The notes under the pieces were generated by a model. It saw only the letters and a program-made list of their open reading frames with translations, searched no databases and had not been told where the DNA came from. Below are positions 45,001-62,012 of a stretch of DNA of 64,000 nt, in pieces. The position numbers and the translations under genes were made by a program. The DNA lies in IMG/VR virus record IMGVR_UViG_3300032233_003207, positions 16,683 through 80,682 of that record; one strand, 5' to 3'. Source of the stretch: a virus. Its lineage: Duplodnaviria > Caudoviricetes. Numbering within the stretch: the stretch's first letter is position 1; each line of letters starts with the position of its first letter.

Positions 45001-48000
45001 CAGCCTCAACATCTAACATTGGTATTGGTTGGTATTCTCCACGATCATTTATACAGAGAGCCCAATTAATATTATAGTAAACAGATGAATAAGATGAATA
45101 TACTTCTTGTATAATTGGAATAACAACTGTTTGTTTATTTACTTGAATGAATTTTCCATTAACTAATGCTACACCACCATTTATATAAATTTGATTGCTA
45201 TTTGGATTTACTCCTGTAGTTTGTAAATCAAATCCTCTAATTACACCATTTGCATGTAATAATTTTTCACCAGTAGAAATATAATTTAAAGCTGAGGTTC
45301 CTAAATCTTTTTCTCCTATATTTCCAAATGCTCTTTCATCTTTAATATTAGTAACTTTTTTAGTTATATCATCAAGTTGACAAGTTGCAATTAACATTAT
45401 TTCATTATCTAATGATAATGTTGGAAATAATTGGAAGTCTAGAGCTTGATTATTAAATGCGGATACTGTAACATTTGCATCAAATAAAATATCAATATAA
45501 TCAATATTTGACTCATCATAAAATCTAGTAATTTCGCCCACTCTACCTTGTGTGATTGGTCCTAAATTATTAGTTCCAACTCCATCATAATAGCATAAGT
45601 ATCCTACATATGTTCCATATGAGGTGAATTGAGTAATATAAAGAGAAATTTTATTTACATTTCCAAATTGATATCCTCTTAATTTTGGAGACACTCTAAC
45701 TATATTTAATTTGTTTAATTCAGAATATGTATATAATGGAACAGAGCCATTAATATTTATAGTAGAAGAGCTTGCATTTATTCTTGCTCTTTCATGAGTA
45801 AATGTTTCTCCATTTTGATTTATTAATACCTCAAAATGTCTCTTAAATGGTGATACTATAGATAAATCTGTTGCACTTTCTTTATTAAAAGAAATAGAAC
45901 TATAGTCTAAATAAATTGCTACTTCTGATCCGATATCTAAAGTAGTTGTAGGAGATACTGCATTTGCATGTACAGCATCATATACAGTAATATCAGTAAA
46001 ATCAACTGAACCACATGAAGAATTTATTGATTGGATAATAAATCTTCCAAAATTTACAAGACCGCCTGAATTTACTTTTTGTATAACAATAGTTTTTCCT
46101 ACTGCTAAACCAGAAGTAGATAAATCTAATGGAATTCTATATGTAACTTCAACTCTTCCTACTGGTACAGGTCCTGGATAAATATTTTTATCATAAATTG
46201 TGCCAAGCCAATATCCATCTCCATATTTATCTTGAATTTGGTTTTTATCTAAACCAAATTTTTCTATTTCAAATCCATTTACATAAAAATTATTTCTCTT
46301 AAGTGGAATAAATATTTTTGTAGGAGTTTGAGATGCGTCTGCTGTATCATAACTTGCAGAATATGGAGGGCTTGCTAAATTTGCTTTGGTTGGACCAAAT
46401 CCAAGAGGATCTAAAGGTAAAAGCGATGTAGCTGAAGTTAAACCAACTATATTTTTAGGAAATGCTATTGCAGTTGCTGAAGTATTATAAGAACCATTAG
46501 ATCCAATAATTCCACTTAATATTGAAAAAGATGTATTATTATATGAATCTGCTAATGCAATACCAAATTCTCCTTGATATTGAAATGCTACAAATCTATA
46601 ATTAAATCCTGAAGCTCTAAATGCATTATTTGTTGATTCAATTATTGATTCTAATGTATATTTTCCAGGAGTTGCGCCTGCATTACCAGTTATATCTATA
46701 CCTGGTAATATAGTATATCCATCAGCAGGATTTCCTGTAGGATATAATGCTAAATATAAAACATAATGCTCTGAATCTATTAGATCAGGATTAAATCCAA
46801 TACCTAAAGCTGAAGCTGATCTTGCATTAACTGCAATAAGGCTTGGTATTTCAGAAAAATTATTATTTGCAGCTGCAACTGCTAAAGCTGCATATTTATT
46901 ATTATTTAATAATGGTTTATCAATTCTTGCACTTGCAGTAGTAGAATACTTTAAATTTTTTCCTTCAATTCTAACTGAATATTTTTTATTACCAGAAGTT
47001 TGAACATATTTTTTTTCTTTTATAATATGAGAAATTTCAACGCCATCATAATTAATTCTAATGATATCGCCAACTTTAACTAATGCAAATTTAGCATCAA
47101 ATGAATTTGATGACATATCTGAACTAGATGGTTTGAATTCAACAATATCATCACCAGTATTAATATCATCAAAAGGAGATGAATTATTTCCAATATTTAA
47201 TAAATATGTAGTTACTTGAGTTGAAGGAACTATTTCTTGACCATATCCATCAACTACTAAATTTGCAGATCTTGATTCTCTAGATATTCCATTAGAAAAT
47301 AAATTTTGTATTCTTGTGCCTAACAAAAATATACTTGCACTATCTATATAATTTGCAAATTTTTGTAAATCATTTGCAGTCTGAGGTATTGTAGAAAATC
47401 TATCAGTATCTATAAATATACCACTAGATAAGTGAGCATATGAAGATGGATATGATGAAGTTCCATTATTAGTTGTAATAGAGCTTACTGTTTCAGTAGC
47501 ATATCCATCAGCAAATTGATGATAAAGTAATTCATTGTTTAATTCTGTAAGAGCAGTAAATGCATTTGAATTATCTCTAAAATTTTTAAACTTATCTTTA
47601 AATCCTAAAGCTGGATTATCTGTTACAGCAATTTGCGATAATGTATGTACGAAAGCAAATCCTAATAAATGAGGATCTAATTTAGAGCCAGTAGAAGATA
47701 TCCATCCTAAACTAGTATTAACATCTGCTGATAAATCTTTTATATAATTAAATAAATCAGATGTTCTGTAATCTAATTTTAATTTAGATTCTTGAATCTC
47801 TGCACTGCTTGATATTTGTGCGTTTGTAATTGGTAAAGTTACTAACCCTAATCCAGTTATAGCGGAAGGCTTAATTGTACCATCTAAATTTAGAGATATT
47901 CCAATTCTATTTGCAACTGACCCTGTAGTTCCATCTGCTCCTAAACCTAAATATTGTTCAATATTAAATACAGCATCTCTGACTGCATTAATAGCCTCTG

Positions 48001-48076
48001 CTCCAATTTCTGTTAAATTGTCATTTACAAAGGGCAATGTAACATCATCATCAAAATTTGAAGGAAATTTACTCAT
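42032..48076 (-). CDS. 2014-aa fibre/appendage protein with right-handed parallel beta-helix region
   Basis: Repeated Asn-ladder rungs (IIFENC, IKFDDC, IENNTC, ISGNNC, IENNIC, ISGNTT, ITNNIF, VKNNKV, ITDNFF) in the C-terminal half. Confidence 0.6.
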   Translation of the reverse strand: MSKFPSNFDDDVTLPFVNDNLTEIGAEAINAVRDAVFNIEQYLGLGADGTTGSVANRIGISLNLDGTIKPSAITGLGLVTLPITNAQISSSAEIQESKLKLDYRTSDLFNYIKDLSADVNTSLGWISSTGSKLDPHLLGFAFVHTLSQIAVTDNPALGFKDKFKNFRDNSNAFTALTELNNELLYHQFADGYATETVSSITTNNGTSSYPSSYAHLSSGIFIDTDRFSTIPQTANDLQKFANYIDSASIFLLGTRIQNLFSNGISRESRSANLVVDGYGQEIVPSTQVTTYLLNIGNNSSPFDDINTGDDIVEFKPSSSDMSSNSFDAKFALVKVGDIIRINYDGVEISHIIKEKKYVQTSGNKKYSVRIEGKNLKYSTTASARIDKPLLNNNKYAALAVAAANNNFSEIPSLIAVNARSASALGIGFNPDLIDSEHYVLYLALYPTGNPADGYTILPGIDITGNAGATPGKYTLESIIESTNNAFRASGFNYRFVAFQYQGEFGIALADSYNNTSFSILSGIIGSNGSYNTSATAIAFPKNIVGLTSATSLLPLDPLGFGPTKANLASPPYSASYDTADASQTPTKIFIPLKRNNFYVNGFEIEKFGLDKNQIQDKYGDGYWLGTIYDKNIYPGPVPVGRVEVTYRIPLDLSTSGLAVGKTIVIQKVNSGGLVNFGRFIIQSINSSCGSVDFTDITVYDAVHANAVSPTTTLDIGSEVAIYLDYSSISFNKESATDLSIVSPFKRHFEVLINQNGETFTHERARINASSSTININGSVPLYTYSELNKLNIVRVSPKLRGYQFGNVNKISLYITQFTSYGTYVGYLCYYDGVGTNNLGPITQGRVGEITRFYDESNIDYIDILFDANVTVSAFNNQALDFQLFPTLSLDNEIMLIATCQLDDITKKVTNIKDERAFGNIGEKDLGTSALNYISTGEKLLHANGVIRGFDLQTTGVNPNSNQIYINGGVALVNGKFIQVNKQTVVIPIIQEVYSSYSSVYYNINWALCINDRGEYQPIPMLDVEAGTPGTSNRLFRAYNPANGLSYNLEATTFSNIINNKKNLTLLYVVSSTVVQSPLSISLSITDARRFVNDLDNNFDLKLANFGSQGNFQNIESIFNWIKYNNLYNGTAIVKGSSEGYGIIAKPITLDFISNVVIDGQNDAIITFNKPVTFGSNITFRNINLLFKNKIFVKENSSNIIFENCHIVITNELADSISDNNVIFNVKKSNNIKFDDCILDVGFKFNATSGALFLLDSANKFIVNDTKITLDFNVDPNDGYVPGTMFIIKNSPSVKLTSCIFEGNFAQCIRNTLSDGLVLKDSYIKTSYNPLVASPDTFDNVTDYLNTSDGLSAVTYDVNNLVNNGRAVIYSKINTSLDNIIIDNVEFIHDPIDTVFVISNRFSFINFELSSNTSILSNVNITNCKFKNIRKTDRDIRSAISIINTSAQSSSNQQQPLLKNINIKNNYFGKNQGIVLTSVLRGDSMSYPGLVTEKCIIENNTCGSIGYWVGSSSKVIDLFPNDTSLSDKDSSLIISGNNCHNIMSTDHNGKYYLPIKLVAGQTVNTCAYPSGNVVIENNICNWIHTAITFEENSSLKILNNSLTAYYTGYLEPYDNTLVKSLSPAYAITVFSNRKAIPNTQAPGEGNDASCIISGNTTSTGYWLQTNSTPYTYKYIQGYICTTASSIITNNIFKGLYNFGDSGLLYSDLIIVGGKTNIVKNNKVYREGNSISSYVRFNSFNLPFWDGLGSYGEITDNFFDSAYLSGNSEIESGLFEWSMPSYTVPGTWIVERNINQTGYILVPLTTGSYSDNSLIYSTTPLWKVTSVYNLTGNFKSIVLRVTDSVDPPELRQVGFQQSLNAYLPNNVKILKAEMGVRSFGNDTDASASNRGVKLNINKYFIDTMQTSDRSGLTYTNLDYLADLDLDQKVPDDLVNSTPYLFISSAELNSTSSTIIKNIDFTGINPATGGPGFGNLVPFYTVNYRYPFTLSVEISVKKIAGTNLTIGISPISIRYRW

Positions 48077-48121
48077 TATTTCACCGCTAATTTAGGTTTA
48101 CTACAATATTATGACTTAAAA

Positions 48122-48499
48122 TTACTTATCTTCTTGCTTTTCTTTTTCTTCTGGCTCTATAGTAATTTTTGAAAATAATAAAGATTTTATAACTCTATAT
48201 AAAAGACCTGACATTAATCCTGCTACTAAACCAAATATTATTCTTCCTCCATTAGAGGATAATTGATTAGGATATGGATAAGTTTTAAATAAAAATCCAC
48301 ATAACCCGCCAACTAAAACTGGTAAAATAGGTAACATCAAATCATTCCATAATTTTAAAATTTTAGATTTTTGTGATACTTTAAACCAATCTAATAATAA
48401 AAATTCTGCTAATTTTCTAATTACAAATATTAATGCGGCAATAGCTAAACCAAAGACAACAAATTGCCAAGTTATAAGCATTGTAAGAATTGGATCCAT
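48122..48499 (-). CDS. Holin-like small membrane protein
   Basis: 125 aa, three predicted TM helices and a charged C-terminal tail. Confidence 0.55.
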   Translation of the reverse strand: MDPILTMLITWQFVVFGLAIAALIFVIRKLAEFLLLDWFKVSQKSKILKLWNDLMLPILPVLVGGLCGFLFKTYPYPNQLSSNGGRIIFGLVAGLMSGLLYRVIKSLLFSKITIEPEEKEKQEDK

Positions 48500-48560
48500 A
48501 ATTATTCTCCTTGCAATTATACAAAATAATTAATATATTATTAATAATATATTAATTTGA

Positions 48561-49871
48561 TTAATCTGCAATTATGCTCAATTTTACAACTGCAAACCAA
48601 TTTATAGTTGTGGCTGCATTAAAACCAGTTTTAATAAGTAATGTTGCGCCTGAATTAACAATATCTCCAGCATCCCAGCCAGATGCTGGAGCGCCAGTAT
48701 CTCTATAATCATAGGCACTTAAACTTCCCATAGGAGTAGCTCCTCCTGATGAATCAATAGAATAGCCTAAAAACATACTAATTTGAGAAGAATTGCTACT
48801 TCCAACTTGTTTTCCTATCATAGTAACATCAACATAAACAGAAGAATTATTTGGCATTAAGTAAGAAAATATATTATTTGCAGTATTTGTTGTAGTTTGC
48901 GAGCTAGTTCTTGTAGAATATACTTGATTGCCGGAATCTAAATAACCCCAAATATTAGGATTCTGCATAGAACCAACTACAAATTGATTTCCTGTTGATT
49001 CTAAAATATTTAATTGTCCATTATTACAGTATAATAAAACTCCACCAGTAGGACTGCCTGAACTAGGCTCATCTGCAGCCTCTTTAATGTAAAGTACTAA
49101 ATCGCCATCAGGCACTTCTCCATCATCTGATTCTCCTAATAAGCTTAATACTCTTCTACCATCAGAAAATTTAGTAGCTTGTATCATAGTTGAATTATGA
49201 TTATCTACTGATAGTTTAACTCCTCCTGGTGCATTATCAAGGCCAGCATAACCGCCAGATATTACTACATTTCCTCCATTACCTAGCGCCGATTGTGCCG
49301 TAAGAGTTAAATCTACACCATCTGTACTACTTGCATAAGATTGAGATATTGAAGGAATAGATGTTTCACTAAAAATTAAATTATTTGCAGGTATTAAAAC
49401 ATTTCCTGAAATGTCTCCAGAAATTTGAATTACTTGTTGATTTAGATTATTTCCAGCTAAATCTTGTGATGCTGTAAAAATTCCAGATAAAGTAGTTGGA
49501 GTCCATGATACTCCATCCCAAATTAATGATTGACCTGCAGATGGAACTAATGTGCTAATAGGCTTTCCTTGTATACTAGAAACAGTAATAGTATCTGCTG
49601 TTCCAGAAATATCTCCATTAATTTTAATAACACCTTTAGAAGATATTGTTGCGTCAGGTAAAGAAGGAGAGTAAATAACATTAGCTAATGAAGAAATAGC
49701 ATCTTGTACATTTTCTTTAGTATTTCCATCTATAACTATTTTAGGAAATAAATCTATTTGACCTGCTTGATGACGAAAATCAGTACCTTCTTTGTGGCTT
49801 TCAAAATCAAAACGATCAGTAACTAATCTTCCAACATTTTTTTTATAATTAGGAACTAAAGGGTCACTCAT
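48561..49871 (-). CDS. Fibre/whisker-like structural protein
   Basis: DATISSKGVIKINGDISG and AGQSLIWDGVSWTP fibre motifs; beta-rich head-like C-terminus. Confidence 0.6.
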   Translation of the reverse strand: MSDPLVPNYKKNVGRLVTDRFDFESHKEGTDFRHQAGQIDLFPKIVIDGNTKENVQDAISSLANVIYSPSLPDATISSKGVIKINGDISGTADTITVSSIQGKPISTLVPSAGQSLIWDGVSWTPTTLSGIFTASQDLAGNNLNQQVIQISGDISGNVLIPANNLIFSETSIPSISQSYASSTDGVDLTLTAQSALGNGGNVVISGGYAGLDNAPGGVKLSVDNHNSTMIQATKFSDGRRVLSLLGESDDGEVPDGDLVLYIKEAADEPSSGSPTGGVLLYCNNGQLNILESTGNQFVVGSMQNPNIWGYLDSGNQVYSTRTSSQTTTNTANNIFSYLMPNNSSVYVDVTMIGKQVGSSNSSQISMFLGYSIDSSGGATPMGSLSAYDYRDTGAPASGWDAGDIVNSGATLLIKTGFNAATTINWFAVVKLSIIAD

Positions 49872-49915
49872 TGTATACTCTCATTTAAAATTATTATATG
49901 TATGCTAGTTTATTA

Positions 49916-51496
49916 TTAGGGCAGCAAAATTGCATGAGTATGACCTAATACCTCTAAAACTTCTCCATTTACAATAGGATGATTATGACCTTGCATTACT
50001 GAAGTAGTTTGATTAACTTGATTTACTGATGTAATATTTTCATTTACAACTATTTTATGTGTATGTGGTGGAATACTTGCTGTCATTCCAATAGATGTAT
50101 TTAATTGTGATGGAAGTTTAGACGTATCTCTAAAAATACGTATTTGATAGGCTGGGTCTGTCTTTCTGATTCTTTGAACTCTTAACTTTTGACCGCCTTG
50201 CAATCCAACTAATGTATTATTTCTAGATACGGTCATAACTTCATATCTAAATTCTTCATTTCCATCAATGTCAAATAAAACAATAACATCTCTATTTTTT
50301 ATAGTTGGCACTGTTAATGTCCAAAATTCTGTAGAAAATTCAGATTCCAAGCCAGCTTCTTGCATCTTTAAATTTTCTTCTGCTGCTGATGGTCTAACTA
50401 ATATCCTTCCATCTGACCTTCTTGGATTAAAATATTGTTCATATCCAAATACAAATTTGGTTCCATAACAGTATGGACACCTATCATCTGCATATTCGCT
50501 AGATGCTCTATAACAAGCGCATGTAACACCTGTTCTAACTCTTTTTATTAAAACTGCAGGCTTACCTGTAACATTTAATAAAAATTCTTGTCTTTGATTA
50601 TTGTGATCTTGTACTGATAAACCTCTTAAAACATTAACATTTCCATATCCATCAATACATCCCATTTCTCCACCAATGTAGCTTCCTACACAGGCACCTG
50701 TCAATAATAATACTGGATCTGTTCTATGATATCCGGCATAATCATAAGATGGAAACCCAATATTAGATTCATCGCTTGCTGATAAATCAGTAGTTAATAT
50801 GTCTTTAGTAACTTGATGATATCCATCATTTTGTGTGTATGGAAAATTAGGATATTCAAATCTAGATTGACATCTATAAATTCTATCAAATCTATTGTCT
50901 TCTCCCACCACAAATAATGTAACCGCAGGATTCCATAATTTATATCCATCATATCCATCTATATTATGATCTAATGCTAAAGTACCATTAACCCCTCTTT
51001 GAGAAATATTGGTTAATACTAAATTTTTATTAAAAGAATCTACAGACAAATATTGTATTAATTCAACTCCTACTTTTATAAGTCCATTAGATGGAAAACC
51101 ATCTATATCAATTAAAGGTATAATTAAATCAGAACTAGTTATATTTGACCTTAATAAACTATTAGGATAAACTCTTAAATTATCATATGCAACAGCTAAA
51201 ATATTTTCAAGATTAAATATTGTAGAATCATACTCTACAGGTCTAACAGAAAAATAATAATTTTGTCCTGGGTTCAAATTTATAATATTTGCTTCTAAAG
51301 AAGAATCAATAGATACATATTTTACGCCTTCATAAAAAACATCTTCTTTTTCTGTCGAATAGTAAATATGATAAGCTATTTTATTATTAATATTTGTGGC
51401 ATAGGCTTGAAACCATTTTATATTAATTGTATAACCATCTCCTAAAGAGGACACAGCATCTATACCAACATAAGGTGGATTTAAATAATAAACCAT
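49916..51496 (-). CDS. Neck/head-closure-like protein with N-terminal FN3-like domain
   Basis: FN3-like INIKW...YHIYYST...INLNPGQNYYFSVRPV; CAC...CPYCYGT Zn-ribbon; WTLTVPTIKNRDVIV...RYEV closure-like beta-barrel; His-rich C-terminus. Confidence 0.55.
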   Translation of the reverse strand: MVYYLNPPYVGIDAVSSLGDGYTINIKWFQAYATNINNKIAYHIYYSTEKEDVFYEGVKYVSIDSSLEANIINLNPGQNYYFSVRPVEYDSTIFNLENILAVAYDNLRVYPNSLLRSNITSSDLIIPLIDIDGFPSNGLIKVGVELIQYLSVDSFNKNLVLTNISQRGVNGTLALDHNIDGYDGYKLWNPAVTLFVVGEDNRFDRIYRCQSRFEYPNFPYTQNDGYHQVTKDILTTDLSASDESNIGFPSYDYAGYHRTDPVLLLTGACVGSYIGGEMGCIDGYGNVNVLRGLSVQDHNNQRQEFLLNVTGKPAVLIKRVRTGVTCACYRASSEYADDRCPYCYGTKFVFGYEQYFNPRRSDGRILVRPSAAEENLKMQEAGLESEFSTEFWTLTVPTIKNRDVIVLFDIDGNEEFRYEVMTVSRNNTLVGLQGGQKLRVQRIRKTDPAYQIRIFRDTSKLPSQLNTSIGMTASIPPHTHKIVVNENITSVNQVNQTTSVMQGHNHPIVNGEVLEVLGHTHAILLP

Positions 51497-51581
51497 ATTA
51501 TTATTCTTATTTATTAGCTTTTTTATTTTAGAATAATAAAAATCTCGACAAAATAATGGGATATTATATAGGGAGAGTAGG

Positions 51582-52085
51582 TTATATATTTTTTAGTAGT
51601 ACTGCTTCTAATTTATCTTTTTTACCATTATCTTTCACATCATGATAATCTAGTAAGTTATCTACATATTTTTCTGCTTCATCTTCTCCAAAATGATCTG
51701 CAATATATTCTACTTGGTTTTGAAATCCTTCTTGTTCAAATTTATTATCTAAATACTCTCCATCATCTGCACCTTTAGTAGGCTTTTTACCAAAACATTG
51801 TTGTAACCAGTGGGTATATTCATGAACTAAATAAGAGTAGTCAAATTTGTCAAAACCATCAGAAATAAGTTTATAGTTTAACCAAACTACCCCATGGTCA
51901 GTCTTAGCTGAAACGTCTAGGGTTTTAAAGTACGTAGGAATATAATCTATCATATCAATGTCTTGACCGTGCTCTTTAAAAACACTTTTCATTATCTTAT
52001 CTTTTTTAAGATTTTTTTTTGCTTTATTAATAATTCGCATCAAAAACATTGGCGACATATCTTTAATAGACAACTTTTTTTTCAT
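51582..52085 (-). CDS. Zincin-like metallopeptidase
   Basis: LVHEYTHWLQ (HExxH) with downstream FEQEGF glutamate. Confidence 0.6.
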   Translation of the reverse strand: MKKKLSIKDMSPMFLMRIINKAKKNLKKDKIMKSVFKEHGQDIDMIDYIPTYFKTLDVSAKTDHGVVWLNYKLISDGFDKFDYSYLVHEYTHWLQQCFGKKPTKGADDGEYLDNKFEQEGFQNQVEYIADHFGEDEAEKYVDNLLDYHDVKDNGKKDKLEAVLLKNI

Positions 52086-52143
52086 AAAATTATACTAGTT
52101 AATTGATACATTAAATGCAAGATATAAAATCAAAAGGCATACA

Positions 52144-52980
52144 ATGAGATTAAAACATGTTAAAAAAATTTTTGATAAAGATTTTCAAATAAAAATTATA
52201 GAAAGTTACTTATTAAATAAGTCAATTAGAAAAGTTTCAAATATTTTTAATATAACTACCAGGCAAGTAACTAGCATACTAAATGATAATAATATTGAGC
52301 ATTCTAAAATAAGAAAAAATATACTTGATGAAGAATATTTTAAAAAATATAACGATGATATAATAGGGCGTGATGTAATGTATTGGGCTGGTTTCATTGC
52401 AGCTGATGGAAACGTAATGAATAAGTCATCATCTAGATCTTATAATATGACAGTTAATTTGTCAATAAAAGATATTAATCATTTAGAAAAGTTAAAAAAT
52501 AGTTTAAAATCTACATCTAAATTAAGAATTTATAATAATAAAGGTGGCGTAAGATTTAATAAAATATTTAAAGATACAACTGGATGCTCAATATCTTTTG
52601 CCTCTAAATATCTTGTAAATTCTTTGGAAAAATTTAATATAATTCCTGCAAAATCTAAAATATATAGCATAACCAAATGCTTATACAATCATAAATTTAT
52701 TAATCATTTTATTAGAGGATACATGGATGAGGACGGAGGAGTATTATTTAACGATAAATATAAAAGAGTATATTTTTATGGGACAAAAGAGTGTTTAAAT
52801 GGAATATCTGAAATTATACTGAAAAGTTGTAATATAATAAAAAAAGCAGTATCAAATAATAGAAGCATTTATTCAATTCAATATAATGGCAAAGATGCCA
52901 TTAATTTAGTAAAGTGGATGTATAAAGATTCTAGTATTTATTTAGAAAGAAAATATAATTGTATAAGAGGATTATTGTGA
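52144..52980 (+). CDS. LAGLIDADG homing endonuclease with N-terminal HTH
   Basis: YWAGFIAADG and HFIRGYMDEDG motifs; C-terminal WMYKDSSIYLERKY. Confidence 0.85.
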   Translation: MRLKHVKKIFDKDFQIKIIESYLLNKSIRKVSNIFNITTRQVTSILNDNNIEHSKIRKNILDEEYFKKYNDDIIGRDVMYWAGFIAADGNVMNKSSSRSYNMTVNLSIKDINHLEKLKNSLKSTSKLRIYNNKGGVRFNKIFKDTTGCSISFASKYLVNSLEKFNIIPAKSKIYSITKCLYNHKFINHFIRGYMDEDGGVLFNDKYKRVYFYGTKECLNGISEIILKSCNIIKKAVSNNRSIYSIQYNGKDAINLVKWMYKDSSIYLERKYNCIRGLL

Positions 52981-55773
52981 TTCCCGGCAAGAGTAAGTTA
53001 TCTCCCAAATATTTAATACAGGGGTTTTCTTTTTATCATTTGATACTGTAAATGTTACTTCTAGTTCTAAAAACTTTTTCTGCGCATCTAATTGCCCTAA
53101 TTCTTTATATAAGTCTATGGGGCATGGACTAGGACCCGTTAGCAAGCAATCTTGTAAATTAGAATTTGATTTGGTAGAAATACTTATCCAATTAGATAAG
53201 GATAAATCATTTTTTGTATTTGCACTTCTTATTCTAAAAGAAATTTCCGTACCTTCAGGAGTAGTTGCTTCCCATGTAAAAAATCCCCATTGTGGTGTCA
53301 TGTTACTATCACAACTAGTTTCGTATGTTTCTATTTTTACAGTATTTGAATAATTACCTGGACAATTAGGAGGATAATCACATACTTTATCATAAAAGAA
53401 TCCCCAGTTGTCTTCTTGAAAACATTCATCTTTATTATGGCTTGCATTTGTAGATGGATTAACTACGATTTCATCATTATTAACCACATTACAACTAGAC
53501 ACATTAATACATTCTCCTGGAGGAATTGCCTGATTAGTATAACAATATTTTGCTCCTGGCAAACTATTTGAATTAGTACCAAAATAGCCAGAACCATTTG
53601 GCATAATTGCTATTGGAATACCAGATGGAGCTTCTTTGGAGCCAGTATTACAGATTGGAATGTTATTTTTACAAGTAAGCCCCACTCCTAACTCAAATGA
53701 ATCACATTTTTTATCAAAATTTGGAGCTTCCCATTCTACACACTCTCCAGCACCTTTCTTTACTCCATCACAATAATTGTGACATGTATCGTGGACTGCA
53801 TTGATACATGTGGCATCCCAGTCGCCCTTCCAACTCATCGGGCACTGGCCAGGATCGTACTCCTTGTACTGGTCCACGCAGTGTTGGTCCCAGAGGCCAT
53901 CGTAGCTCTTCTCGCAGTCGTAGTAGATCCAGCCGTAGATGGGGTCGTCCCAGCAATTCTCCTGGAGTTCCCACCAGCACTCGTAGACCTGCTCCCACCA
54001 GCACTCGTAGACGGTCTCCCAGTACCAACCGCAGTCGTACCGGTACTCCTGGTCCCACCAACATTCGTAGGTGTAGACGTACTGCTGGTCCCACCAGCAC
54101 TCGTAGAGGTACGTGTAAACGTTCTCCCACCAGCACTCGTAGACGTACACCTGCTCCCACCAGCACTCGTACAGGTACGTGTAGACGTCTTCCCACCAGC
54201 ACTCATAGAGGTAGGTGTAAACGTCCTCCCACCAGCAGCCGTAGGTGTAGACGTTCTCCCACCAACACTCATACAGGTAGGTGTAAACGTCCTCCCACCA
54301 GCATTCGTAGACGTACTGTTGCTCCCACCAGCACTCGTAGAGGTAGGTGTAGACGTCTTCCCACCAGCAGTCGTAAACGTACTCCTGCTCCCACCAACAT
54401 TCGTAGGTGTAGACGTACTGCTGCTCCCACCAGCAGTTGTAGCCGTAGTAGCAGCCCCACCAGTCGCAGATCCACGTCCAGCCGCAGACGTAGTTTTGGA
54501 TCCAAGTCCAGCGCCAGCCGCAGACGTAGGTCTGTCGCCAACGCCAGCCGCAGAAGTACGTGTACACGTAGCGCCAACGCCAGCCGCAGAGGTAAACCTC
54601 TTTCCAACGCCAGCCGCAGAAGTACGTATAAATGTAACGCCAGCGCCAGCCGCAGATGTACGTGTAAACGTAGTACCAGCCGCAGATGTACGTGTAGATG
54701 TAACGCCAGCGCCAGCCGCAGATGTACGTGTAGATGTAACGCCAGCGCCAGCCACAGAGGTAGTACTCGATCCAACGCCAACCGCAGAGGTACGTGTAGA
54801 CGTACGTCCAGTGCCAGCCGCAGAGGTAGACCTGTACCCAAGTCCAGTGCCAGCCGCAGTAGTAGACGTTTACCCAGTGCCAGCCGCACGAGTAGTTCTC
54901 GATGTCGTGCCAGCCGCAGGTGTAGATCTCGTTCCAGCCGCAAACGTAGGTATCGACCCACTCACAGACGGTCTGGTAGTCGATGATGTCCCAGTAGCTG
55001 CAGACGTCCCACTCGGTGTAGGGGCAGCAGGTTTTGTCCCAGTCGCAAACCTTCGTGACCGTCGAATCGCAATCCTTGGTGAGACCCTTGTCGTAGGTGA
55101 GGCAAGGTTCGGTCTCGCAGGTGCCCTCGTACTTCTTTTCACAACATTGAGGTTTTTCTTCACAAATTTTATCAACACACTTGGTTTCGCATCCTTTAAT
55201 TAAGCCTTCGCCTTTGGTACAAATATCATGAGAACAACTTCCTTGAGCCGGATCTTGGCATTTCTGGTTCTGATGACACTGTGAGCCATGCGTGCAAGGC
55301 TCTTTTGCGGCTCCATTATTATTAGCTGTATCTATACTACTTTTAGGATCTGCAGACCATTTCCAATTCCACTTACAAAAAGATCCGTCTGCATCCCAAC
55401 TACCATCTTCAACCCATTTACTACAAAATATGTCACATGGGTTATTTTCACAAGTTTTTTCTTCTGTTAATGATAGTGGTTTACCATCATCAGATGGTAC
55501 TTTAGTTATTTCTTCACCATCTGTGCAATCAGACCAAATATTATTTATACAATATTGAATTCCAACAAAACAAGTTAATACGCCATTTTGCCGACCAATA
55601 GTTAAATGACATGATTTTTTATCACCATTATCACAATAGTTATCTACGTTTTCATTGCCACCTGAATTATTGAATATTACTTCATCCGAAGATCTTTCAG
55701 AACTTTGTGCACAGGATGCAATTAAAAAAGTAAATAAAATAAAAAATAAATAAAATATTTTATTTCTATTCAT
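52972..55773 (-). CDS. Cysteine-rich lipoprotein with nested Cys modules and a mirror-symmetric Cys/Trp/Tyr ladder
   Basis: Signal peptide II MNRNK-hydrophobic-LIAS/C; Cys-rich modules; 36-Cys repeat core; beta-sandwich-like C-terminus ending TPVLNIWEITYSC. This is the only frame open across both AT-rich flanks and the GC-rich core. Confidence 0.85.
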   Translation of the reverse strand: MNRNKIFYLFFILFTFLIASCAQSSERSSDEVIFNNSGGNENVDNYCDNGDKKSCHLTIGRQNGVLTCFVGIQYCINNIWSDCTDGEEITKVPSDDGKPLSLTEEKTCENNPCDIFCSKWVEDGSWDADGSFCKWNWKWSADPKSSIDTANNNGAAKEPCTHGSQCHQNQKCQDPAQGSCSHDICTKGEGLIKGCETKCVDKICEEKPQCCEKKYEGTCETEPCLTYDKGLTKDCDSTVTKVCDWDKTCCPYTEWDVCSYWDIIDYQTVCEWVDTYVCGWNEIYTCGWHDIENYSCGWHWVNVYYCGWHWTWVQVYLCGWHWTYVYTYLCGWRWIEYYLCGWRWRYIYTYICGWRWRYIYTYICGWYYVYTYICGWRWRYIYTYFCGWRWKEVYLCGWRWRYVYTYFCGWRWRQTYVCGWRWTWIQNYVCGWTWICDWWGCYYGYNCWWEQQYVYTYECWWEQEYVYDCWWEDVYTYLYECWWEQQYVYECWWEDVYTYLYECWWENVYTYGCWWEDVYTYLYECWWEDVYTYLYECWWEQVYVYECWWENVYTYLYECWWDQQYVYTYECWWDQEYRYDCGWYWETVYECWWEQVYECWWELQENCWDDPIYGWIYYDCEKSYDGLWDQHCVDQYKEYDPGQCPMSWKGDWDATCINAVHDTCHNYCDGVKKGAGECVEWEAPNFDKKCDSFELGVGLTCKNNIPICNTGSKEAPSGIPIAIMPNGSGYFGTNSNSLPGAKYCYTNQAIPPGECINVSSCNVVNNDEIVVNPSTNASHNKDECFQEDNWGFFYDKVCDYPPNCPGNYSNTVKIETYETSCDSNMTPQWGFFTWEATTPEGTEISFRIRSANTKNDLSLSNWISISTKSNSNLQDCLLTGPSPCPIDLYKELGQLDAQKKFLELEVTFTVSNDKKKTPVLNIWEITYSCRESQ
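53815..55136. other. High-GC in-frame insert within an AT-rich gene
   Basis: Sampled line 54181-54240 has 34/60 G+C (57%) versus 19/60 in flank line 53041-53100. Codons switch abruptly to C/G-ending (TGC, TAC, GAG) between CC-EK (55141) and WDAT (~53818). Confidence 0.9.
53914..55002 (-). repeat. Tandem 24-36 nt coding repeats: CGW(R/H)W..Y.Y arm and CWWE..Y.YE arm
   Basis: 18 Cys per arm around the CDWWGC turn at 54451-54468; near-identical 36-nt tandem copies at 54685-54720 and 54721-54756. Confidence 0.95.
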
Positions 55774-55792
55774 ACATAAATTTATATATCTT

Positions 55793-56027
55793 TTATAAAC
55801 TATTATCTAACAAATTATATAAAAAATCTTTTGCAGATGTATATAAATTTTCAGGCATTACAACATCATTAAAATCTATTTTTTTCTAGTGATCTTGGAA
55901 CAAAATTATTTTCTGAATCTATATAGTCTTTGCTGTAATATAAAGTTATAGATTTAGTATCTGGTGATATTTCTATTTTTACTTTATCTATAATTATTGA
56001 TTCTGGTGTTTTTAAATTAATTGGCAT
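55793..56027 (-). pseudogene. Small ORF split by an A7 run (+1 slip, mutation or assembly error)
   Basis: ATG at 56027 after an AAGGG RBS stops at 55869 (52 aa). Deleting one A from the run at 55879-55885 gives ...LEKIDFNDVVMPENLYTSAKDFLYNLLDNSL* ending at 55793, 20 nt before the lipoprotein start. Confidence 0.4.
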
Positions 56028-56069
56028 ATTTTCCCTTTTATATTTATGCTATAAGACCATAAGCACTTA

Positions 56070-56390
56070 TTATATAATAAGTGACAATAACTCATTCAAT
56101 TCAGATTGAGTAAGATTTTGTCCAGATTTTAATTTTGATTTTAATTCAATTATTCTATTTTCTTTAGCAGTATTTGCTGCTTGCTCTAGCTCTACTTCAA
56201 CTTTGTGAGCCTCATCATTTGCTATTTCTAATTCAGATGGATATAACAAAGTTTGTAAATATATTCCATTTTTATTTACAATTGCACACCATTCCCCCCT
56301 GTCATTATCAATATGACATCTATCTCCAATAATACTAGAAATGACTGATGGAGGATTGCAATTACAATTTTTATAAGTCATTTTAACCAA
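56070..56390 (-). CDS. Small hypothetical protein, possible fibre assembly chaperone
   Basis: 106 aa coupled to the collagen-fibre gene; C-terminal helical [17 protein letters not shown]. Confidence 0.5.
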
Positions 56391-58494
56391 CTCTTAGTTT
56401 ATATAGATGAGCTTCTGTACCTGCAGGCCAACCTGTAGATACTGAAGAGTACATATCTATTGATGTAATATTGGTAGTTGTATCTGTCCATCTACCGGTT
56501 CCTGTTAGTCCAACTAATGTACCAACGCTATCATAAGAAAAATTTAAATTCATAAATCTATAAGTTCCTGTTGCAGCTATAATTGTCATCTCTCCTGAAA
56601 AGTAGGTAGAAGATGCCCACGATCCACCAAGCCCCCAGTTAGAATAATTAGCTACTCCATGTTGACCAGCCGAGTTACTATACCAAAAATGATGAGTTTG
56701 ACTAAATCCTGATGTAAGTCCATTTGGTCTAATTTCATAAGAAGTAGATGACGCTATAGGTCCTCTTCTAAAAAACATTTTATATATTTTATCTGAGTTT
56801 CCATTGAGATTTGAAAAAGTAAGAGTTTGAGTAGCGGTTGTTACATACTTGCTTTCAATTAAAATAAAATCTGACGTACCACTTGCTGCACCTGTTGCAG
56901 AAATAGTAAGTGTAGAGCCCGCTCCGCCATCAGTGAGAGATATTCCACTACCTGCAGTCAATACTCTTTCATTAGTTAAATTTGCATTCGTACTCAATAA
57001 TAAATAAGAGGCATCTGTTGGCGCTCCTGCGTTTCCCTGGGTACCTTGAGAGCCTGTAGCCCCTTGAGTTCCTTGACTTCCTGTAGAACCTGTGTGCCCT
57101 TGAGATCCTTGAGAACCTGTAGGTCCTAAAGTTCCTTGAGGTCCTGTATAGCCTGTAGATCCTTGAGACCCTGTAGCGCCTTGCCCTGTAGCGCCAGTGT
57201 AACCTTGAGCACCTTGTGGTCCCTGAGTGCCAGTATAACCCTGAGAGCCTTGAGGTCCTTGAGCCCCAGTATAACCTTGAGCGCCTTGAGCGCCTTGAGT
57301 TCCAGTGGCGCCTGTACGACCCTGAGAACCTTGAGGTCCTTGAGCCCCAGTATAACCTTGTGGTCCCTGATTACCAGTATATCCTTGAGAACCTTGAGGT
57401 CCTTGAGCCCCAGTATATCCTTGAGAACCTTGAGGTCCTTGACTTCCCGTATAACCTTGAGTGCCTTGAGTTCCTTCGGAACCCGTATAGCCCTGAGCGC
57501 CTTGAGCACCAGATGCTCCAGTAGCGCCCATATAACCTTGACTACCTTGAGAACCAGTGGCTCCAGTAGCTCCAGTATAACCTTGAGCACCTTGAGCACC
57601 TTGCGCACCTTGAGAACCAGTAGCTCCAATATAACCTTGACTACCTTGACTACCTTGACTACCTTGACTGCCTTGACTACCTTGACTGCCTTGAGGACCT
57701 ACTGGACCTGTAAAACCTTGAGCGCCTTGAGATCCTTGAGCGCCTTGTTGACCTTGAGGACCAACAGGACCTGTATAACCAGTAAAGCCTTGAGGTCCTA
57801 CAGGACCTGTATAACCAGTAGTACCTTGAGGACCAACAGGACCAGTAAAGCCTTGCGCTCCCTGTAAGCCTTGAGGACCTACTGGACCTGTAAAACCTTG
57901 AGCGCCTTGAGATCCTTGAGCGCCTTGTTGACCTTGAGGTCCAACAGGACCTGTATAACCAGTGGCTCCCTGTAAACCTTGTAGTCCTGTAGAGCCAGTA
58001 GGTCCTTGAAATCCTAATGGACCTGTATAACCGGTGGCGCCTTGTGCGCCTGTAGGTCCTGATGATCCTATAGCTCCTTGAGGTCCTGTAGCCCCTTGTA
58101 AACCTTGAGATCCTGTAGTTCCTTGAGAACCGCCTCCAGATATTTCATCTGTATACGCTAAATTTCTAACTGAACCTTCACTATAAATTTTTAATCTGCC
58201 AGTAGATATATCCATACCTACTTCACCAGATTGTGTTGGCGTAGAATTACTAGACCACTTTAATAAAGCGCCAGAATTATGATTTAATTCTATATTTCCA
58301 TGAACATTAATGTTATTTCCTTCTCTAGAAATATAAACATTTTCATCTCTATTATTTGAATTTTGTAAATAAACTCCAGCACACTCAATCATATCTTCTT
58401 GAGGCTCTATTGGAGTTGGATAAACTCTAGAATCAGCGGCATCACCACCATTAGCAGCAGATTCTACTTTTAATACTTGAACCCTATCAGTCAT
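56383..58494 (-). CDS. Collagen-like triple-helix fibre protein
   Basis: N-terminal anchor domain, 371-aa G-X-Y region and C-terminal beta-rich head domain. Confidence 0.88.
57019..58131 (-). repeat. Gly-X-Y collagen repeat, 123 triplets with one G-Q-G interruption
   Basis: Units [18 protein letters not shown]; interruption at 57181-57186; 9-nt microsatellite (GSQ)n around 57630-57690. Confidence 0.92.
57688..57963. repeat. 96-bp direct repeat (57688-57783 and 57868-57963), 1 mismatch
   Basis: Direct comparison of the two segments, offset 180 nt. Confidence 0.85.
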
Positions 58495-58618
58495 TTAATA
58501 ACCCTTATTTAATTACTAATAAGTATATTAATGTATTGATATATTTATTATTTATGAAAATAGATAAAGTCAAACCAGCAAGGAATAAGACCCCATAATA
58601 TTATGGTAGAATAGTCTT

Positions 58619-59491
58619 ATGCCTAAAAAAATAATATTTAATAAAGAAGAAATAGATAAAATTATAAATCTTTATAAGTCTGGAATTTCTTGTAAAGAAA
58701 TTGGCAAACAATTTAAGTGCTCTAAACAAGTTATAAATATTAATCTTAAAAATAATAATATTGTAATTCGTGATAATTCCCATGCACAACAAAAATACAC
58801 TATTAATGAAAATATTTTTTCAAAAATTGATAGTCAAGAAAAAGCTTACTGGCTTGGCATGTTAACAGGAGATGGCTGGATTACAGATCGAAATGAATTA
58901 GGATTATCTTTGCAGGAAAAAGATAAAAATCATATTTTTTTATTTAAAAATTTTTTAAGCTCTACTCATCCAATAAAAATAATAAATAATGGTATTAAAA
59001 AAAATGGCAATCCATCTATTTCTTATGAATTAAAATTAAGCAATAAAAAAATAGTTTTAGATTTAAAAAAATATGGATTTAGTAAAAATAAAACTAAATA
59101 TATAAAATTTCCAAATATAAATAAAAAATATTTAGCAAGCTACATGCTCGGTCTAATAGACAGTGATGGTAGTTTTTGTTTAAAATCACATTATAAAAAT
59201 AAAGATAAAAAATTATTATCTTTTAATTTTATTGGTCCTACTGAGTTTACAGAAACTTTTCAAAAATTATTAATTAATAATTGTAATATATCTAAAACAA
59301 AATTAGGAATTCAAAAAAATACTAATTTTGTTAGAACTGTAAATTATGGAGGCTATAAAAATATTTATAAAATAGTTAAGTTTCTTTACTCTGGCACAAA
59401 TATTTTTATGCAAAGAAAAAAAAGTATTGCTATTAAATACTTATTAGAAAAATACCCAAATGATCAGTGGTTACAAAGTCAATTATATTAA
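58619..59491 (+). CDS. LAGLIDADG homing endonuclease with N-terminal HTH
   Basis: YWLGMLTGDG and YMLGLIDSDG motifs; C-terminal FLYSGTNIFMQRKK. Confidence 0.85.
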   Translation: MPKKIIFNKEEIDKIINLYKSGISCKEIGKQFKCSKQVININLKNNNIVIRDNSHAQQKYTINENIFSKIDSQEKAYWLGMLTGDGWITDRNELGLSLQEKDKNHIFLFKNFLSSTHPIKIINNGIKKNGNPSISYELKLSNKKIVLDLKKYGFSKNKTKYIKFPNINKKYLASYMLGLIDSDGSFCLKSHYKNKDKKLLSFNFIGPTEFTETFQKLLINNCNISKTKLGIQKNTNFVRTVNYGGYKNIYKIVKFLYSGTNIFMQRKKSIAIKYLLEKYPNDQWLQSQLY

Positions 59492-60382
59492 TCTTCTTGC
59501 ACGCAAATGCCTGAGTCTAGCAAAAGCGGGATTTATGGCGCTGTTCATGCTAAATACGCCCAGACCCCTAGGGGCGGGTCTAAGTGAGTTCTTTATCATC
59601 TTAAGTTTTTCCCAGTAATGAGCTAGCAAGCTGCTATACTGAGTATTCATCATTTCGCTGACAGTAGGAGGATTAAAGCTTATACTATTATCTGTAATTT
59701 GAAACTCTCTGCCTCTTTCAATTAATGCTTTAGAAGCTAAAGAGTAAAGAGTTGCACCTTCAACTAAAATTTCTCCAAATTGCTCAACAAAGTTATCATC
59801 ATCAAACTGAAAGAAAGTAAAATAAGGTACTTGATTAAAATCCCATAAAGCAGTAGCTAAAAATGATGTTAACATTTCTATAGAAAAAATATCACAATCT
59901 ACATAAATAGTATTACCATAGCTATCTGTAGATTTAGCTTTTCCTGAGCTATTTAATCTGGCTTTTAAAGACTTAATTAATTTGTTAATATTTTTAATTG
60001 CCGCTTGAGAATATTGAAAACCGGGATCATCGCCAAGGTGAGCGTAGCCGTCTGTATTTATCGCAGGCATTTGAGTATGAGCTACTACAAAGCTAAAAGT
60101 AGTTTCTACTCTAAATCCATTAATAAATCCTGACCACACATCATTAAAAACTCCATAAGGACCATTAATTGGTATAGTAAAAATATAGCTATATTTACCA
60201 GTATCTACCTGGGCGACACCTGTAGAAGTTGGCGCAAGTAAGACTAAGCCACTAGGTTGTAAAATAGAAATTTTAGGAAAAGAATCAGTATTAATAGGCT
60301 GCCCGTTGCCATCCTTAAATTGGACAGTTAAATTAACTTGATCTGTTACATCAATTAGTTCGCCGCGAGCTTTGATAGCCAT
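59483..60382 (-). CDS. Neck/head-tail adaptor-like protein with N-terminal Ig-like domain
   Basis: N-terminal beta-sandwich (VQFKDGNG...VDTGKYSYIF) plus helical domain (LATALWDFNQVP...ILVEGATLYSL...FQITDNSISF) typical of head completion proteins. Confidence 0.6.
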   Translation of the reverse strand: MAIKARGELIDVTDQVNLTVQFKDGNGQPINTDSFPKISILQPSGLVLLAPTSTGVAQVDTGKYSYIFTIPINGPYGVFNDVWSGFINGFRVETTFSFVVAHTQMPAINTDGYAHLGDDPGFQYSQAAIKNINKLIKSLKARLNSSGKAKSTDSYGNTIYVDCDIFSIEMLTSFLATALWDFNQVPYFTFFQFDDDNFVEQFGEILVEGATLYSLASKALIERGREFQITDNSISFNPPTVSEMMNTQYSSLLAHYWEKLKMIKNSLRPAPRGLGVFSMNSAINPAFARLRHLRARRLI

Positions 60383-60424
60383 GAATAATCTCCAAACTAT
60401 ACGTTATCTAGATATATTTATTTT

Positions 60425-61297
60425 ATGAGTAAAATTTTATTAAATTATCTCTCTAAAGAAATATTAGAATATGAATATAAAAACTGCGGTAGTATGCAAA
60501 AAGTAGCAGATAAATTAAAATTGTCTGTAGATACTATTTATAAATATATGAAACTTTATAATATTGAATATAATATTAATTATAAAGGATTATATAGTTG
60601 TAATGAAAGCTTTTTTAATTCAGGATCTCCAGAAAGTTTTTATTTAGCAGGTTTTATTGCTGCAGATGGCTCAGTACAATATAGAAAATATTCAAAAATA
60701 TTAAAAATAACTTTAGCTTTAAAAGATGAAAATCATTTAATAAAAATAAAAAATATTTTAAATAGCAGTCATCCTATAAAAAAATATTTAGTTAAACCAT
60801 CTAAATTAATTCAATCTGAGCATGAATGCGTAGAGCTACAAATAGCTAATAAAACCATAGTTGATAGTTTATTAAAATTTAATATTGTACCTAATAAAAC
60901 AAAAAAATATAATATTGCAGACTGGATTGTTGATCATCAATTTGTTAATCATTTTATTAGAGGATATTTTGATGGTGATGGCACAATAACATATTGCGGG
61001 CTGCCTAAAAATAGAAAAATAAAGCAATTAAATTTTAGTATTATAGGTACAGAAAAATTTATAAAACAATATAATGATATTTTATCAAAAAATTGCAAAA
61101 TAAATCCTGCAAAAGTTATAAACCACTATTCTATATATAAGATAAGTTTTAGTGGAAATAATGTAGTTAAAAAAATATATAATTTTCTATACCAAGATGC
61201 AAGTCTATATTTAGATAGAAAGAAAAATATATTTGATAATAATTATATTGCAACTGAAGCGCTAAAATTAGCAAATGGCGCAGAAACAATTATATGA
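60425..61297 (+). CDS. LAGLIDADG homing endonuclease with N-terminal HTH
   Basis: YLAGFIAADG and HFIRGYFDGDG motifs; C-terminal FLYQDASLYLDRKK. Confidence 0.87.
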   Translation: MSKILLNYLSKEILEYEYKNCGSMQKVADKLKLSVDTIYKYMKLYNIEYNINYKGLYSCNESFFNSGSPESFYLAGFIAADGSVQYRKYSKILKITLALKDENHLIKIKNILNSSHPIKKYLVKPSKLIQSEHECVELQIANKTIVDSLLKFNIVPNKTKKYNIADWIVDHQFVNHFIRGYFDGDGTITYCGLPKNRKIKQLNFSIIGTEKFIKQYNDILSKNCKINPAKVINHYSIYKISFSGNNVVKKIYNFLYQDASLYLDRKKNIFDNNYIATEALKLANGAETII

Positions 61298-61584
61298 TAT
61301 ATTTCTGAATTTGTTTGCAAATTATCTGGATTAATATAAGAAACATCTACCAAATAATTTCCTACCGCAGTAGCGCCAGAGGGCAGTGTAAATTGAAAAT
61401 AATATAAACCAGTATCTATTAAAACCATATTTTGAGGATAGTCTGCAGCAAGAGTTAATCCTGGAAAAATAATTTTATTAACCACTGGTAAACTGGGAGA
61501 ATTAGTACGAGTACCATATCCATCTTTTGTTTCTAGAAAAACTCTAACTAATTGACCTGGAAAAAATTGTAATATTTGAGACAT
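61243..61584 (-). CDS. Small Ig-like virion protein, paralogous to N-terminus of 59483..60382
   Basis: LETKDGYG...IDTGLYYFQFTLP...GNYLVDV aligns by eye with VQFKDGNG...VDTGKYSYIFTIP...GVFNDVW. Confidence 0.55.
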   Translation of the reverse strand: MSQILQFFPGQLVRVFLETKDGYGTRTNSPSLPVVNKIIFPGLTLAADYPQNMVLIDTGLYYFQFTLPSGATAVGNYLVDVSYINPDNLQTNSEIYHIIVSAPFANFSASVAI

Positions 61585-61646
61585 AAATCACCTTGTAATT
61601 ATTATACGTTAATATTCATGGCAATTAATTAACATAATATATAGTT

Positions 61647-62012
61647 ATGAAAAAAAATACTTTTTGGTTAACTAATTTATGTAATCGTAATGTTAGTTTA
61701 TACGATTTAAATTTAACTATAAAAGCATTTTCATCTATAAATTTAATGGATAAGCGACATTATAATTATAGTTTAGAAGAGCTGGAAAAGTCTGCAGCAT
61801 CAGGATCAATTTTTAAAAAAAGAAAGATGCTATCTGTTCGTAAAGTTGAACCTACAGTAATAAAGATGAATATTCCAATGGTAGAAGAGGTTTATATTCC
61901 ATCTAGAGAAAGATCTGTATTTGAAATTAAAGAAGAAAACTATGAAGAGTTACTAGTTTCAGATGAAGATTTTGCAAATCAAAATGCTGAAATGATAGAT
62001 GATAAATTATAA
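61647..62012 (+). CDS. Hypothetical protein
   Basis: 121-aa ORF, first of a three-gene plus-strand cluster. Confidence 0.55.
   Translation: MKKNTFWLTNLCNRNVSLYDLNLTIKAFSSINLMDKRHYNYSLEELEKSAASGSIFKKRKMLSVRKVEPTVIKMNIPMVEEVYIPSRERSVFEIKEENYEELLVSDEDFANQNAEMIDDKL

Follow-up and report, generated by a model that had tools for sequence, protein, structure and literature searches.

How does a phage gene that is AT-rich at both ends come to hold an interior written in the codons of a GC-rich bacterium? This question is raised by a gene in the DNA analyzed here, a 64-kb stretch (hereafter the window) of the 80.7-kb IMG/VR virus record IMGVR_UViG_3300032233_003207, for which CheckV gives a completeness of 19%. 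The surrounding phage contig has a G+C content of approximately 29% (28-30%), and the gene encodes a 933-residue lipoprotein-type member of the DUF8252 family. Within the protein, a cysteine-rich module (the outer module) is split by a very long loop between a CC pair and a WD pair, and that loop contains a second copy of the module (the inner module), which is itself split around a cysteine-rich ladder. We conclude that the gene is very probably a phage copy of a myxobacterial lipoprotein gene, and that its central 1.32 kb was recently overwritten by a bacterial allele through homologous recombination.

Origin of the GC-rich tract

We delimited the GC-rich tract with a two-change-point maximum-likelihood fit on third codon positions. 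The fit, which has a likelihood-ratio statistic of 501, places the switches at codons 213 and 652, corresponding to window positions 55137 and 53818. The G+C content of third codon positions (GC3) is 0.88 within the tract and 0.18 outside it. In 20-codon blocks, GC3 rises from 0.05-0.4 to 0.75-1.0 and then falls back, while the G+C content of first and second codon positions stays flat along the gene, so that the switch is confined to synonymous positions. Codon usage flips in every synonymous family (AAA to AAG, GAA to GAG, TTA to CTC, AGA to CGY, and ATA or ATT to ATC). There is no second GC3 island in the window; the neighboring collagen-like gene reaches 52% G+C through the first and second positions of its Gly, Pro and Ala codons, and its GC3 is 0.07-0.27. 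Downstream of the tract, the 3' flank is 65-72% identical in nucleotide sequence to other phage alleles and yields no BLASTN match to bacterial alleles. Five further open reading frames (ORFs) of 102-474 residues lie on both strands across 53768-55203; these are unlikely to be genes, since a GC3-rich repeat without stop codons yields such frames.

A sequence of the donor type, a 1,065-nucleotide ENA contig designated L031, came from the list of clusters at 90%; a search for donor fragments among short proteins returned three weak fragments only. L031 has a G+C content of 61.7%, with a GC3 of 0.73-0.90 throughout, and its N-terminus is of the type found in the bacterial loci L027 and L005. Its nucleotide identity to the window gene is 30-71% over codons 1-210 and 94-98% from codon 211 on. 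L030, an allele from a different phage, is 98% and 97% identical to the window tract in the two non-repeat parts. The window gene departs from L031 and L030 at nearly every codon through TGT211, after which more than 50 codons are identical save for one base. At the 3' end it tracks L030 to GGC650/GAC651 and then continues in AT-rich codons akin to those of the phage allele L008. The switch is thereby resolved to within 17 nucleotides on the 5' side and 12 nucleotides on the 3' side. These breakpoints lie at the loop edges because the crossovers fall in the nucleotide runs that are best conserved between phage and bacterial alleles, and those runs are best conserved because they encode QCCEKKY and SWKGDWD. 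Contigs from a freshwater metagenome of another study (run X4) are approximately 99% identical to the window in the tract and are GC-rich beyond it, differing at each third base just outside both junctions (from 53815 downward at the 3' end).

Trees built from separate segments of the gene conflict with one another. In the tree of the N-terminal flank, the window allele belongs to a phage clade (support 96/95) and is sister to L020 (99/98). The tree of the C-terminal flank likewise places it among phage alleles, the order within which is not resolved. In the tree of the inner non-repeat segment, the window allele joins the bacterial alleles L027, L005 and L023, with a support of 90/93 that is moderate because the segment has 111 columns only. 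Similarly, amino acid identity to L027 is 86% in the inner non-repeat segment versus 62-65% in the flanks. L027 in turn shares 96% identity with a gene of 'MAG: Polyangiaceae bacterium RH-23may17-336', a metagenome-assembled genome (MAG) of 63% G+C. Given that the tract has the composition of the donor, and that a high G+C content extends along the whole donor-type gene, which is collinear with bacterial chromosomal orthologs, the direction of transfer is from bacterium to phage. The lack of amelioration, together with the 94-98% identity to L031, indicates that the event is recent. Thus, the preliminary description of this DNA was right both to place the GC switch at the edges of the outer loop, at its CC and WD, and to propose a recent import from a high-GC donor, for which the near-identical L031 sequence and the segment-wise tree conflict point to a Polyangiaceae- or 'Deltaproteobacteria'-type source.

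We considered that there may have been no transfer, and that the high GC3 arose in place through selection on repeat codons or GC-biased conversion among the ladder repeats. Indeed, GC3 along the gene peaks in the ladder for several phage alleles, as it does for the bacterial L005 and L027. However, the tract also holds 330 nucleotides of non-repeat sequence that have the same GC3 and are 94-98% identical to L031 and L030, and its boundary is knife-sharp. The collagen repeats of the same phage have moreover kept the low GC3 given above, and in L006 the GC3 of the ladder lies below that of its flanks. We therefore regard an origin in place as extremely unlikely for the window tract. A rise of GC3 in place could contribute to the small patches of L020 and L015 that are confined to the ladder.

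The tract might instead be an assembly chimera of a phage allele with a co-occurring GC-rich allele, since both kinds of allele are found in the same sample types and the repetitive ladder breaks many assemblies. An ENA scaffold of 85.9 kb, L035, argues against this. It matches the window over 49972-57742 with six substitutions, and it spans both junctions with the same neighbors on either side, as does the IMG/VR contig. Two Logan contigs, one from run X1 (5.9 kb) and one from run X2 (2.2 kb), also bridge position 53818, and that from X2 represents a further, third haplotype. Among the contigs listed for these two runs, none covers 54760-55700, so the 5' junction is supported by the two long assemblies. 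At the junctions, donor- and recipient-type sequences agree over just 12-17 bases; assembler k-mers are longer than this, which makes a k-mer switch implausible. Since both junctions are crossed in two assemblies whose haplotypes differ slightly, a chimera is very unlikely. The six differences between L035 and the window (53947, 53965, 53968, 54438, 54600 and 54754) are synonymous and all fall in the tract, within 7.8 kb compared; this clustering possibly reflects repeated conversion, conversion within the ladder, or noise in the assembly of repeats.

Several observations weigh against the replacement that we propose. The nearest named genome, the Polyangiaceae MAG, is only 85-88% identical in nucleotide sequence to the non-repeat parts of the tract, and no full-length donor gene at more than 90% identity was recovered on a long bacterial contig. 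L031 is itself a fragment whose bacterial origin is suggested by its composition and its N-terminal similarity, and the AT-rich allele that was resident before the proposed overwriting is represented by two proxies, L020 and L008. When window positions 44001-64000 were compared with two MAGs, the matches were to the lipoprotein gene only. Finally, the gap of approximately 34 G+C points between the phage and its proposed host would be extreme; for phiKZ and Pseudomonas the gap is approximately 30 points.

Imported tracts in other phage alleles and the route of arrival

Change-point fits on each phage allele reveal GC3 patches in six further alleles, and each patch takes in part of the ladder (Table 1). 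Their limits differ from one another, and the coincidence of breakpoints with loop edges is peculiar to the window allele. Imported tracts were assigned in four alleles. L030, whose tract is of the same donor type as that of the window, comes from a different phage with flanks of 41-44% G+C and an endolysin context. L016 is a phage-like contig with a G+C content of 28-41% upstream of its tract. Approximately 600 nucleotides of it (L016:3300-4000) are 100% identical to L029 of 'MAG: Deltaproteobacteria bacterium K_DeepCast_35m_m2_009' (64% G+C), while its first 90 codons are 40-60% identical to the allele of that MAG. L016 and this MAG (G002) come from samples with neighboring IMG identifiers, and the L016 tract is either a second, fresher host-to-phage tract or the product of a chimeric contig. 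The presence of the ladder in all patches may reflect selection, a recombination hot spot or the decay of older imports.

Table 1. Positions of features in the lipoprotein gene of the window and of GC-rich segments in other alleles
Sequence	Feature	Position	Strand	Basis or remark
Window	Whole gene, 933-residue lipoprotein-type DUF8252 member	52972..55773	-	single ORF
Window	Signal peptide and lipobox (MNRNKIFYLFFILFTFLIAS/C; FLIAS/C), predicted	55711..55773	-	read from sequence
Window	AT-rich phage-type 5' flank: N-terminal Cys-rich domain and outer module N-half	55138..55710	-	GC3 ~0.18
Window	Outer module N-half, residues 180-211	55141..55236	-	part of 5' flank
Window	5' crossover interval, in GAA AAG AAG TAC just past outer CC (GAAAAGAAGTAC)	55125..55141	-	codon alignment
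Window	Imported GC-rich tract, codons 213-652, all between outer CC and outer WD	53818..55137	-	GC3 0.88
Window	Inner module N-half (C219...C249-C250)	55024..55119	-	HMM 23-31 bits
Window	Ascending basic ladder arm, with CGW[RH]W... units 8, 10 or 12 residues long	54469..55023	-	Cys spacing
Window	Ladder tip (C436 DWWG C441)	54451..54468	-	center of spacing palindrome, 6-5-6
Window	Descending acidic ladder arm, CWWE... units	53893..54450	-	unit lengths mirror ascending arm
Window	Inner module C-half (W628 DQHCVDQ)	53869..53892	-	HMM covers positions 1-42 across splice
Window	3' crossover interval, in GAC TGG GAT (GACTGGGAT)	53815..53826	-	codon alignment
Window	Outer module C-half (W652 DATCINAV)	53794..53820	-	HMM 47.6 bits, spliced outer module
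Window	AT-rich phage-type 3' flank: C-terminal beta-rich domain	52972..53817	-	GC3 0.05-0.35
L030	Change-point patch	aa 93-802		
L010	Change-point patch	aa 193-658		
L018	Change-point patch	aa 193-502		
L020	Change-point patch	aa 297-455		
L004	Change-point patch	aa 294-476		
L015	Change-point patch	aa 310-366		
L030	Imported tract	aa 93-802		same donor type as window
L016	Imported tract	aa 95-300		100% nucleotide identity to Deltaproteobacteria MAG G002
L004	Imported tract	aa 297-496		89% to L027
L010	Imported tract	aa 437-673		90% to G002 (lake MAG)

Given the larger tract of L030, the bacterial sequence may have reached the window gene second-hand, with a co-infecting L030-type phage as the immediate donor. 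The window tract lies wholly within that of L030, with 97-98% identity outside the repeats, the rung patterns of the two ladders are equal except at the tip, and the window gene borders at its 3' end on a homing endonuclease gene. Homing endonuclease genes promote conversion between phages. On the other hand, in the first 270 codons of the aligned tract L030 is nearer to L031 than the window is, and the endonuclease gene lies 840 nucleotides away from the tract. The window, L030 and L031 are roughly equidistant from one another, so no order can be derived among them. We consider a second-hand arrival possible but somewhat unlikely. In either case the ultimate donor of the overwriting allele is bacterial; the allele may have come straight from the host chromosome or by way of a co-infecting phage that already bore a larger host tract.

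The replacement can be pictured as follows. The whole lipoprotein gene would have entered the phage lineage long ago, a suggestion based on the clade formed by the phage alleles in the flanks and on their ameliorated codon usage. The later exchange would have occurred in an infected bacterium, either with a chromosomal homolog or, during co-infection, with a phage already bearing a host tract. Crossovers at the two short conserved runs, just past QCC and within GDWD, would then have replaced 1.32 kb with the allele of a Polyangiaceae-like bacterium of approximately 62% G+C, leaving the codon usage of the donor in place. Presumably a recombinase tolerant of divergence carried out the exchange.

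Why the same region should be imported repeatedly may be a matter of selection, in that the phage lipoprotein might need to carry the version of the ladder and inner module that its current host uses. Under such selection the phage protein would co-assemble with, compete with or mimic a host surface protein, for example in blocking superinfection or in interfering with host surface recognition. Several unrelated phages of 28-47% G+C would then repeatedly take up the host allele in the ladder region but retain their own flanks. We find this explanation rather doubtful and offer it tentatively.

Nested modules and the ladder

Since the GC-rich tract fills the outer loop, we examined the architecture of the protein with a hidden Markov model (HMM) built from 56 uninterrupted copies of the approximately 43-residue Cys module from bacterial family members. 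The module has the myxobacterial-type pattern C-x-H-x2-C...G..L...C..C...C...CC...W...C. When its two halves are spliced together (residues 178-212 and 649-664), the outer module matches the full length of the model with 47.6 bits (E = 4e-14). The spliced inner module (residues 217-251 and 625-640), which is without the second Cys of the CxxC pair, also matches the full length of the model, with 31.3 bits (E = 5e-9). The maximum score among 400 composition-matched shuffles is 5.3 bits. Because both match the HMM end to end, the outer and inner modules are copies of one module, each split at the loop between CC and W. The ladder sits between the CC (residues 249-250) and WD (residues 628-629) of the inner module.

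This architecture is widespread. A phmmer search returned 570 relatives at E <= 1e-3, including 109 at E <= 1e-30, which match query residues ~20-260 and ~620-933; an alignment of 35 sequences has 20 invariant columns, chiefly Cys. A precomputed match to PF26780.1 (DUF8252) exists for P0151, whose sequence equals that of the window protein; P0001, P0152-P0155 and P0003 have one as well. Among the 94 family members that could be parsed, the insert in the outer CC..W loop ranges from 3 to 1,328 residues. At 3 residues the module is uninterrupted, P0022 and P0041 being examples; tandem modules, C-type lectins and ladders are among the inserts. The three-level nest is present in every ortholog recovered, phage and bacterial: in three IMG/VR phage contigs and nineteen metagenome loci, in the bacterial genes P0001/L005 and P0152/L027, and, in degenerate form, in P0003/L006, a gene of 72% G+C. 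It is likewise present in the phage alleles L002, L003, L009, L011 and L014, which have no marked GC3 patch.

These data bear on the proposal that the nest was created when a simple AT-rich module received a GC-rich one as a new, in-frame insertion into its CC..WD loop. The breakpoints do match the edges of the outer loop, and across the family that loop takes inserts of widely differing length. However, phage orthologs, unpatched ones included, and bacterial orthologs already hold the inner module and the ladder at this place, the patch boundaries of other alleles lie elsewhere, and the outer module also stands upstream of the breakpoint in the donor-type allele. A new insertion is thus scarcely credible; the nested design is an old property of the family, and the transfer did not create it. 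The preliminary description had correctly recognized a homologous module within a module, with the ladder innermost, and had correctly identified the module as myxobacterial in type. Its picture of an insertion-tolerant socket applies to the family, where the loop varies so greatly, and fails for this event, in which a homologous stretch was replaced; nor was the inner module inserted into the loop by this event, as it had suggested. Phage alleles lacking the insert, for which it proposed a search, were not found among the recovered orthologs, which instead show patches with other boundaries.

The Cys/Trp/Tyr ladder consists of two arms whose cysteine spacings mirror one another: 8 8 10 10 12 12 10 12 12 10 12 10 12 10 12, then 6 5 6 at the center, then the reverse, with 16 of the 18 mirrored spacing pairs being equal. 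The unit types also pair between arms, 12-residue CGWRWRYIYTYI with CWWEDVYTYLYE and 10-residue CGWRWKEVYL with CWWEQQYVYE. This mirroring persists in relatives with 3 to approximately 16 rungs, with L005 and L016 as exceptions. In L005 (10097-12832) the basic arm has four additional units, and the L016 gene has one additional unit; such unequal ladders may be intermediates of a change in ladder length or may result from repeats collapsed in assembly. The mirrored unit lengths of the two arms lead us to propose a single, very long beta-hairpin, stapled by disulfides, as the fold of the ladder. The AlphaFold2 model of a 5-rung ortholog has strands of roughly 80 residues at 252-331 and 334-412, joined by a turn at the point equivalent to the tip of the window ladder, at moderate confidence, with a predicted local distance difference test (pLDDT) score of 46-70 for the ladder. 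The model of the 15-rung window protein covers the ladder only at its base (252-289 and 588-624) and its tip, the middle having a pLDDT of approximately 25, and the C-terminal beta-rich domain has a pLDDT of 80-95. A Foldseek search with a whole 725-residue model gave template modeling scores of at most 0.13, and the top matches, the pore stems of iota and CDT toxins, share a long hairpin. VIA-align gave a generic jelly-roll match (Z of 9.5 to Bdellovibrio Bd1399, 133 residues). Neither search points to a function. In the AlphaFold2 model of L015, strands 99-127 and 600-725 form one jelly-roll-like sandwich, corresponding to residues ~99-127 and 810-933 of the window protein. If this sandwich holds, the middle of the protein as a whole would sit as an insert within an outer domain, giving the nest one level more.

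The predicted fold resembles cystine-ladder hairpins and tryptophan zippers in its antiparallel two-stranded ribbon, cross-strand disulfides and aromatic pairs. Theta-defensins, protegrins and tachyplesins have 2-3 rungs in approximately 18 residues, whereas the window ladder has approximately 18 Cys pairs and approximately 185 residues per arm. The arrangement is also like known domain-insertion architectures, in which a surface loop of one fold hosts a complete domain; here the nesting is at least twofold and the insert is variable. Unlike in a typical domain insertion, host and guest are copies of one 43-residue Cys module and the innermost guest is a mirror-symmetric ladder.

Phage context, host and precedents

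The genes of the window include a tail sheath gene and a collagen-like tail fiber gene, both near the lipoprotein gene, and homing endonuclease genes. Together with the AT-rich 80.7-kb record at 19% completeness, these genes suggest a large myovirus. The L-x-x-C box of the lipoprotein, predicted from reading the sequence, occurs at the same place in phage and bacterial orthologs, and in view of this lipoprotein signal the phage-made protein probably reaches the host envelope by export instead of becoming part of the virion. Two paralogous homing-endonuclease-type genes, at 52144-52980 (+) and 58619-59491 (+), match phrog_4645 (E = 3e-42 and 4e-52), and the former overlaps the final 9 nucleotides of the lipoprotein gene. 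In L008, the nearest phage relative, p167 lies directly downstream of the lipoprotein gene with no intervening endonuclease, so the endonuclease gene at 52144-52980 looks like an insertion; its position may favor local gene conversion. The collagen-like tail fiber gene, at 56383-58494 (-), encodes 703 residues with approximately 120 G-x-y triplets; in scaffold L035 it is broken by a run of N and is called as 382 residues. When nine neighbor genes of the window were sought beside the gene in 26 related loci, none adjoined it except p167 on L008. The neighbors are thus not kept, which suggests that the lipoprotein gene moves between phage contexts.

Database searches gave few leads. A tblastn search of 50,697 GenBank phages found no match for the lipoprotein gene or for a neighboring 526-residue gene, PHROGs has no family for the window protein, and a Pfam search with a model set without PF26780 likewise gave none. 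The sole NCBIfam match of the window protein is sub-threshold (E = 0.12, 12 bits versus a cutoff of 40 bits), and NCBIfam searches with bacterial members found nothing. A tRNA scan found none, and a literature search found no paper on DUF8252. On the bacterial side, L005 and L027 share a conserved neighborhood comprising several FG-GAP/ASPIC genes and genes for a trypsin-like protease, DUF3105, GT2, GH31 and FHA, and the L005 locus additionally holds a DsbA-type gene. This neighborhood is a possible functional context for a disulfide-rich protein.

If the exchange took place inside an infected cell, as seems likely to us, then the donor lineage is the host. That the phage infects a GC-rich, Polyangiaceae-like myxobacterium is therefore a reasonable, if indirect, reading of the bacterial-type tract, and the host hint of the preliminary description stands at this strength.

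The closest precedent is the intragenic recombination between cyanophage and host alleles of psbA and psbD, which was recognized by patchy %G+C (Zeidner et al. 2005; Sullivan et al. 2006, PMC1484495). There, as here, a host gene carried by phages swaps internal segments with host alleles, with a patchiness of %G+C mainly at third codon positions and a segment-wise conflict of trees. Unlike those metabolic genes, the gene described here encodes a surface lipoprotein, the contrast is far larger (a GC3 of 0.18 versus 0.88, and a phage of approximately 29% versus a donor of approximately 62% G+C), the breakpoints are resolved to about a dozen bases, and at least four phage lineages have differing tract boundaries around one structural element. 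The present case is thus an unusually sharp one, in another gene and another host group.

With regard to mechanism, the exchange joins diverged homologs, approximately 65-70% identical, at short runs of identity. De Paepe and colleagues reportedly described in 2014 how phage mosaicism arises in this manner, by relaxed homologous recombination with Rad52-like single-strand annealing proteins. Unlike in that work, no recombinase was identified in the window, and such a mechanism for the present exchange is conjectural.

The tract connects Polyangiaceae-like Myxococcota, a group whose phages are barely known, with a jumbo myovirus that is uncultured and very AT-rich, and with several unrelated phages from fresh water; the evidence is at the level of sequence. 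If the host link is true, the gap in G+C content between phage and host would be among the largest on record. The locus also offers an unusually clear natural case of host-to-phage gene conversion, with a donor-type allele in hand and several independent events in one gene, and should be useful for the study of recombination between diverged homologs. Finally, the nested architecture belongs to a large, undescribed bacterial family, in which one loop tolerates inserts of 3 to more than 1,300 residues.

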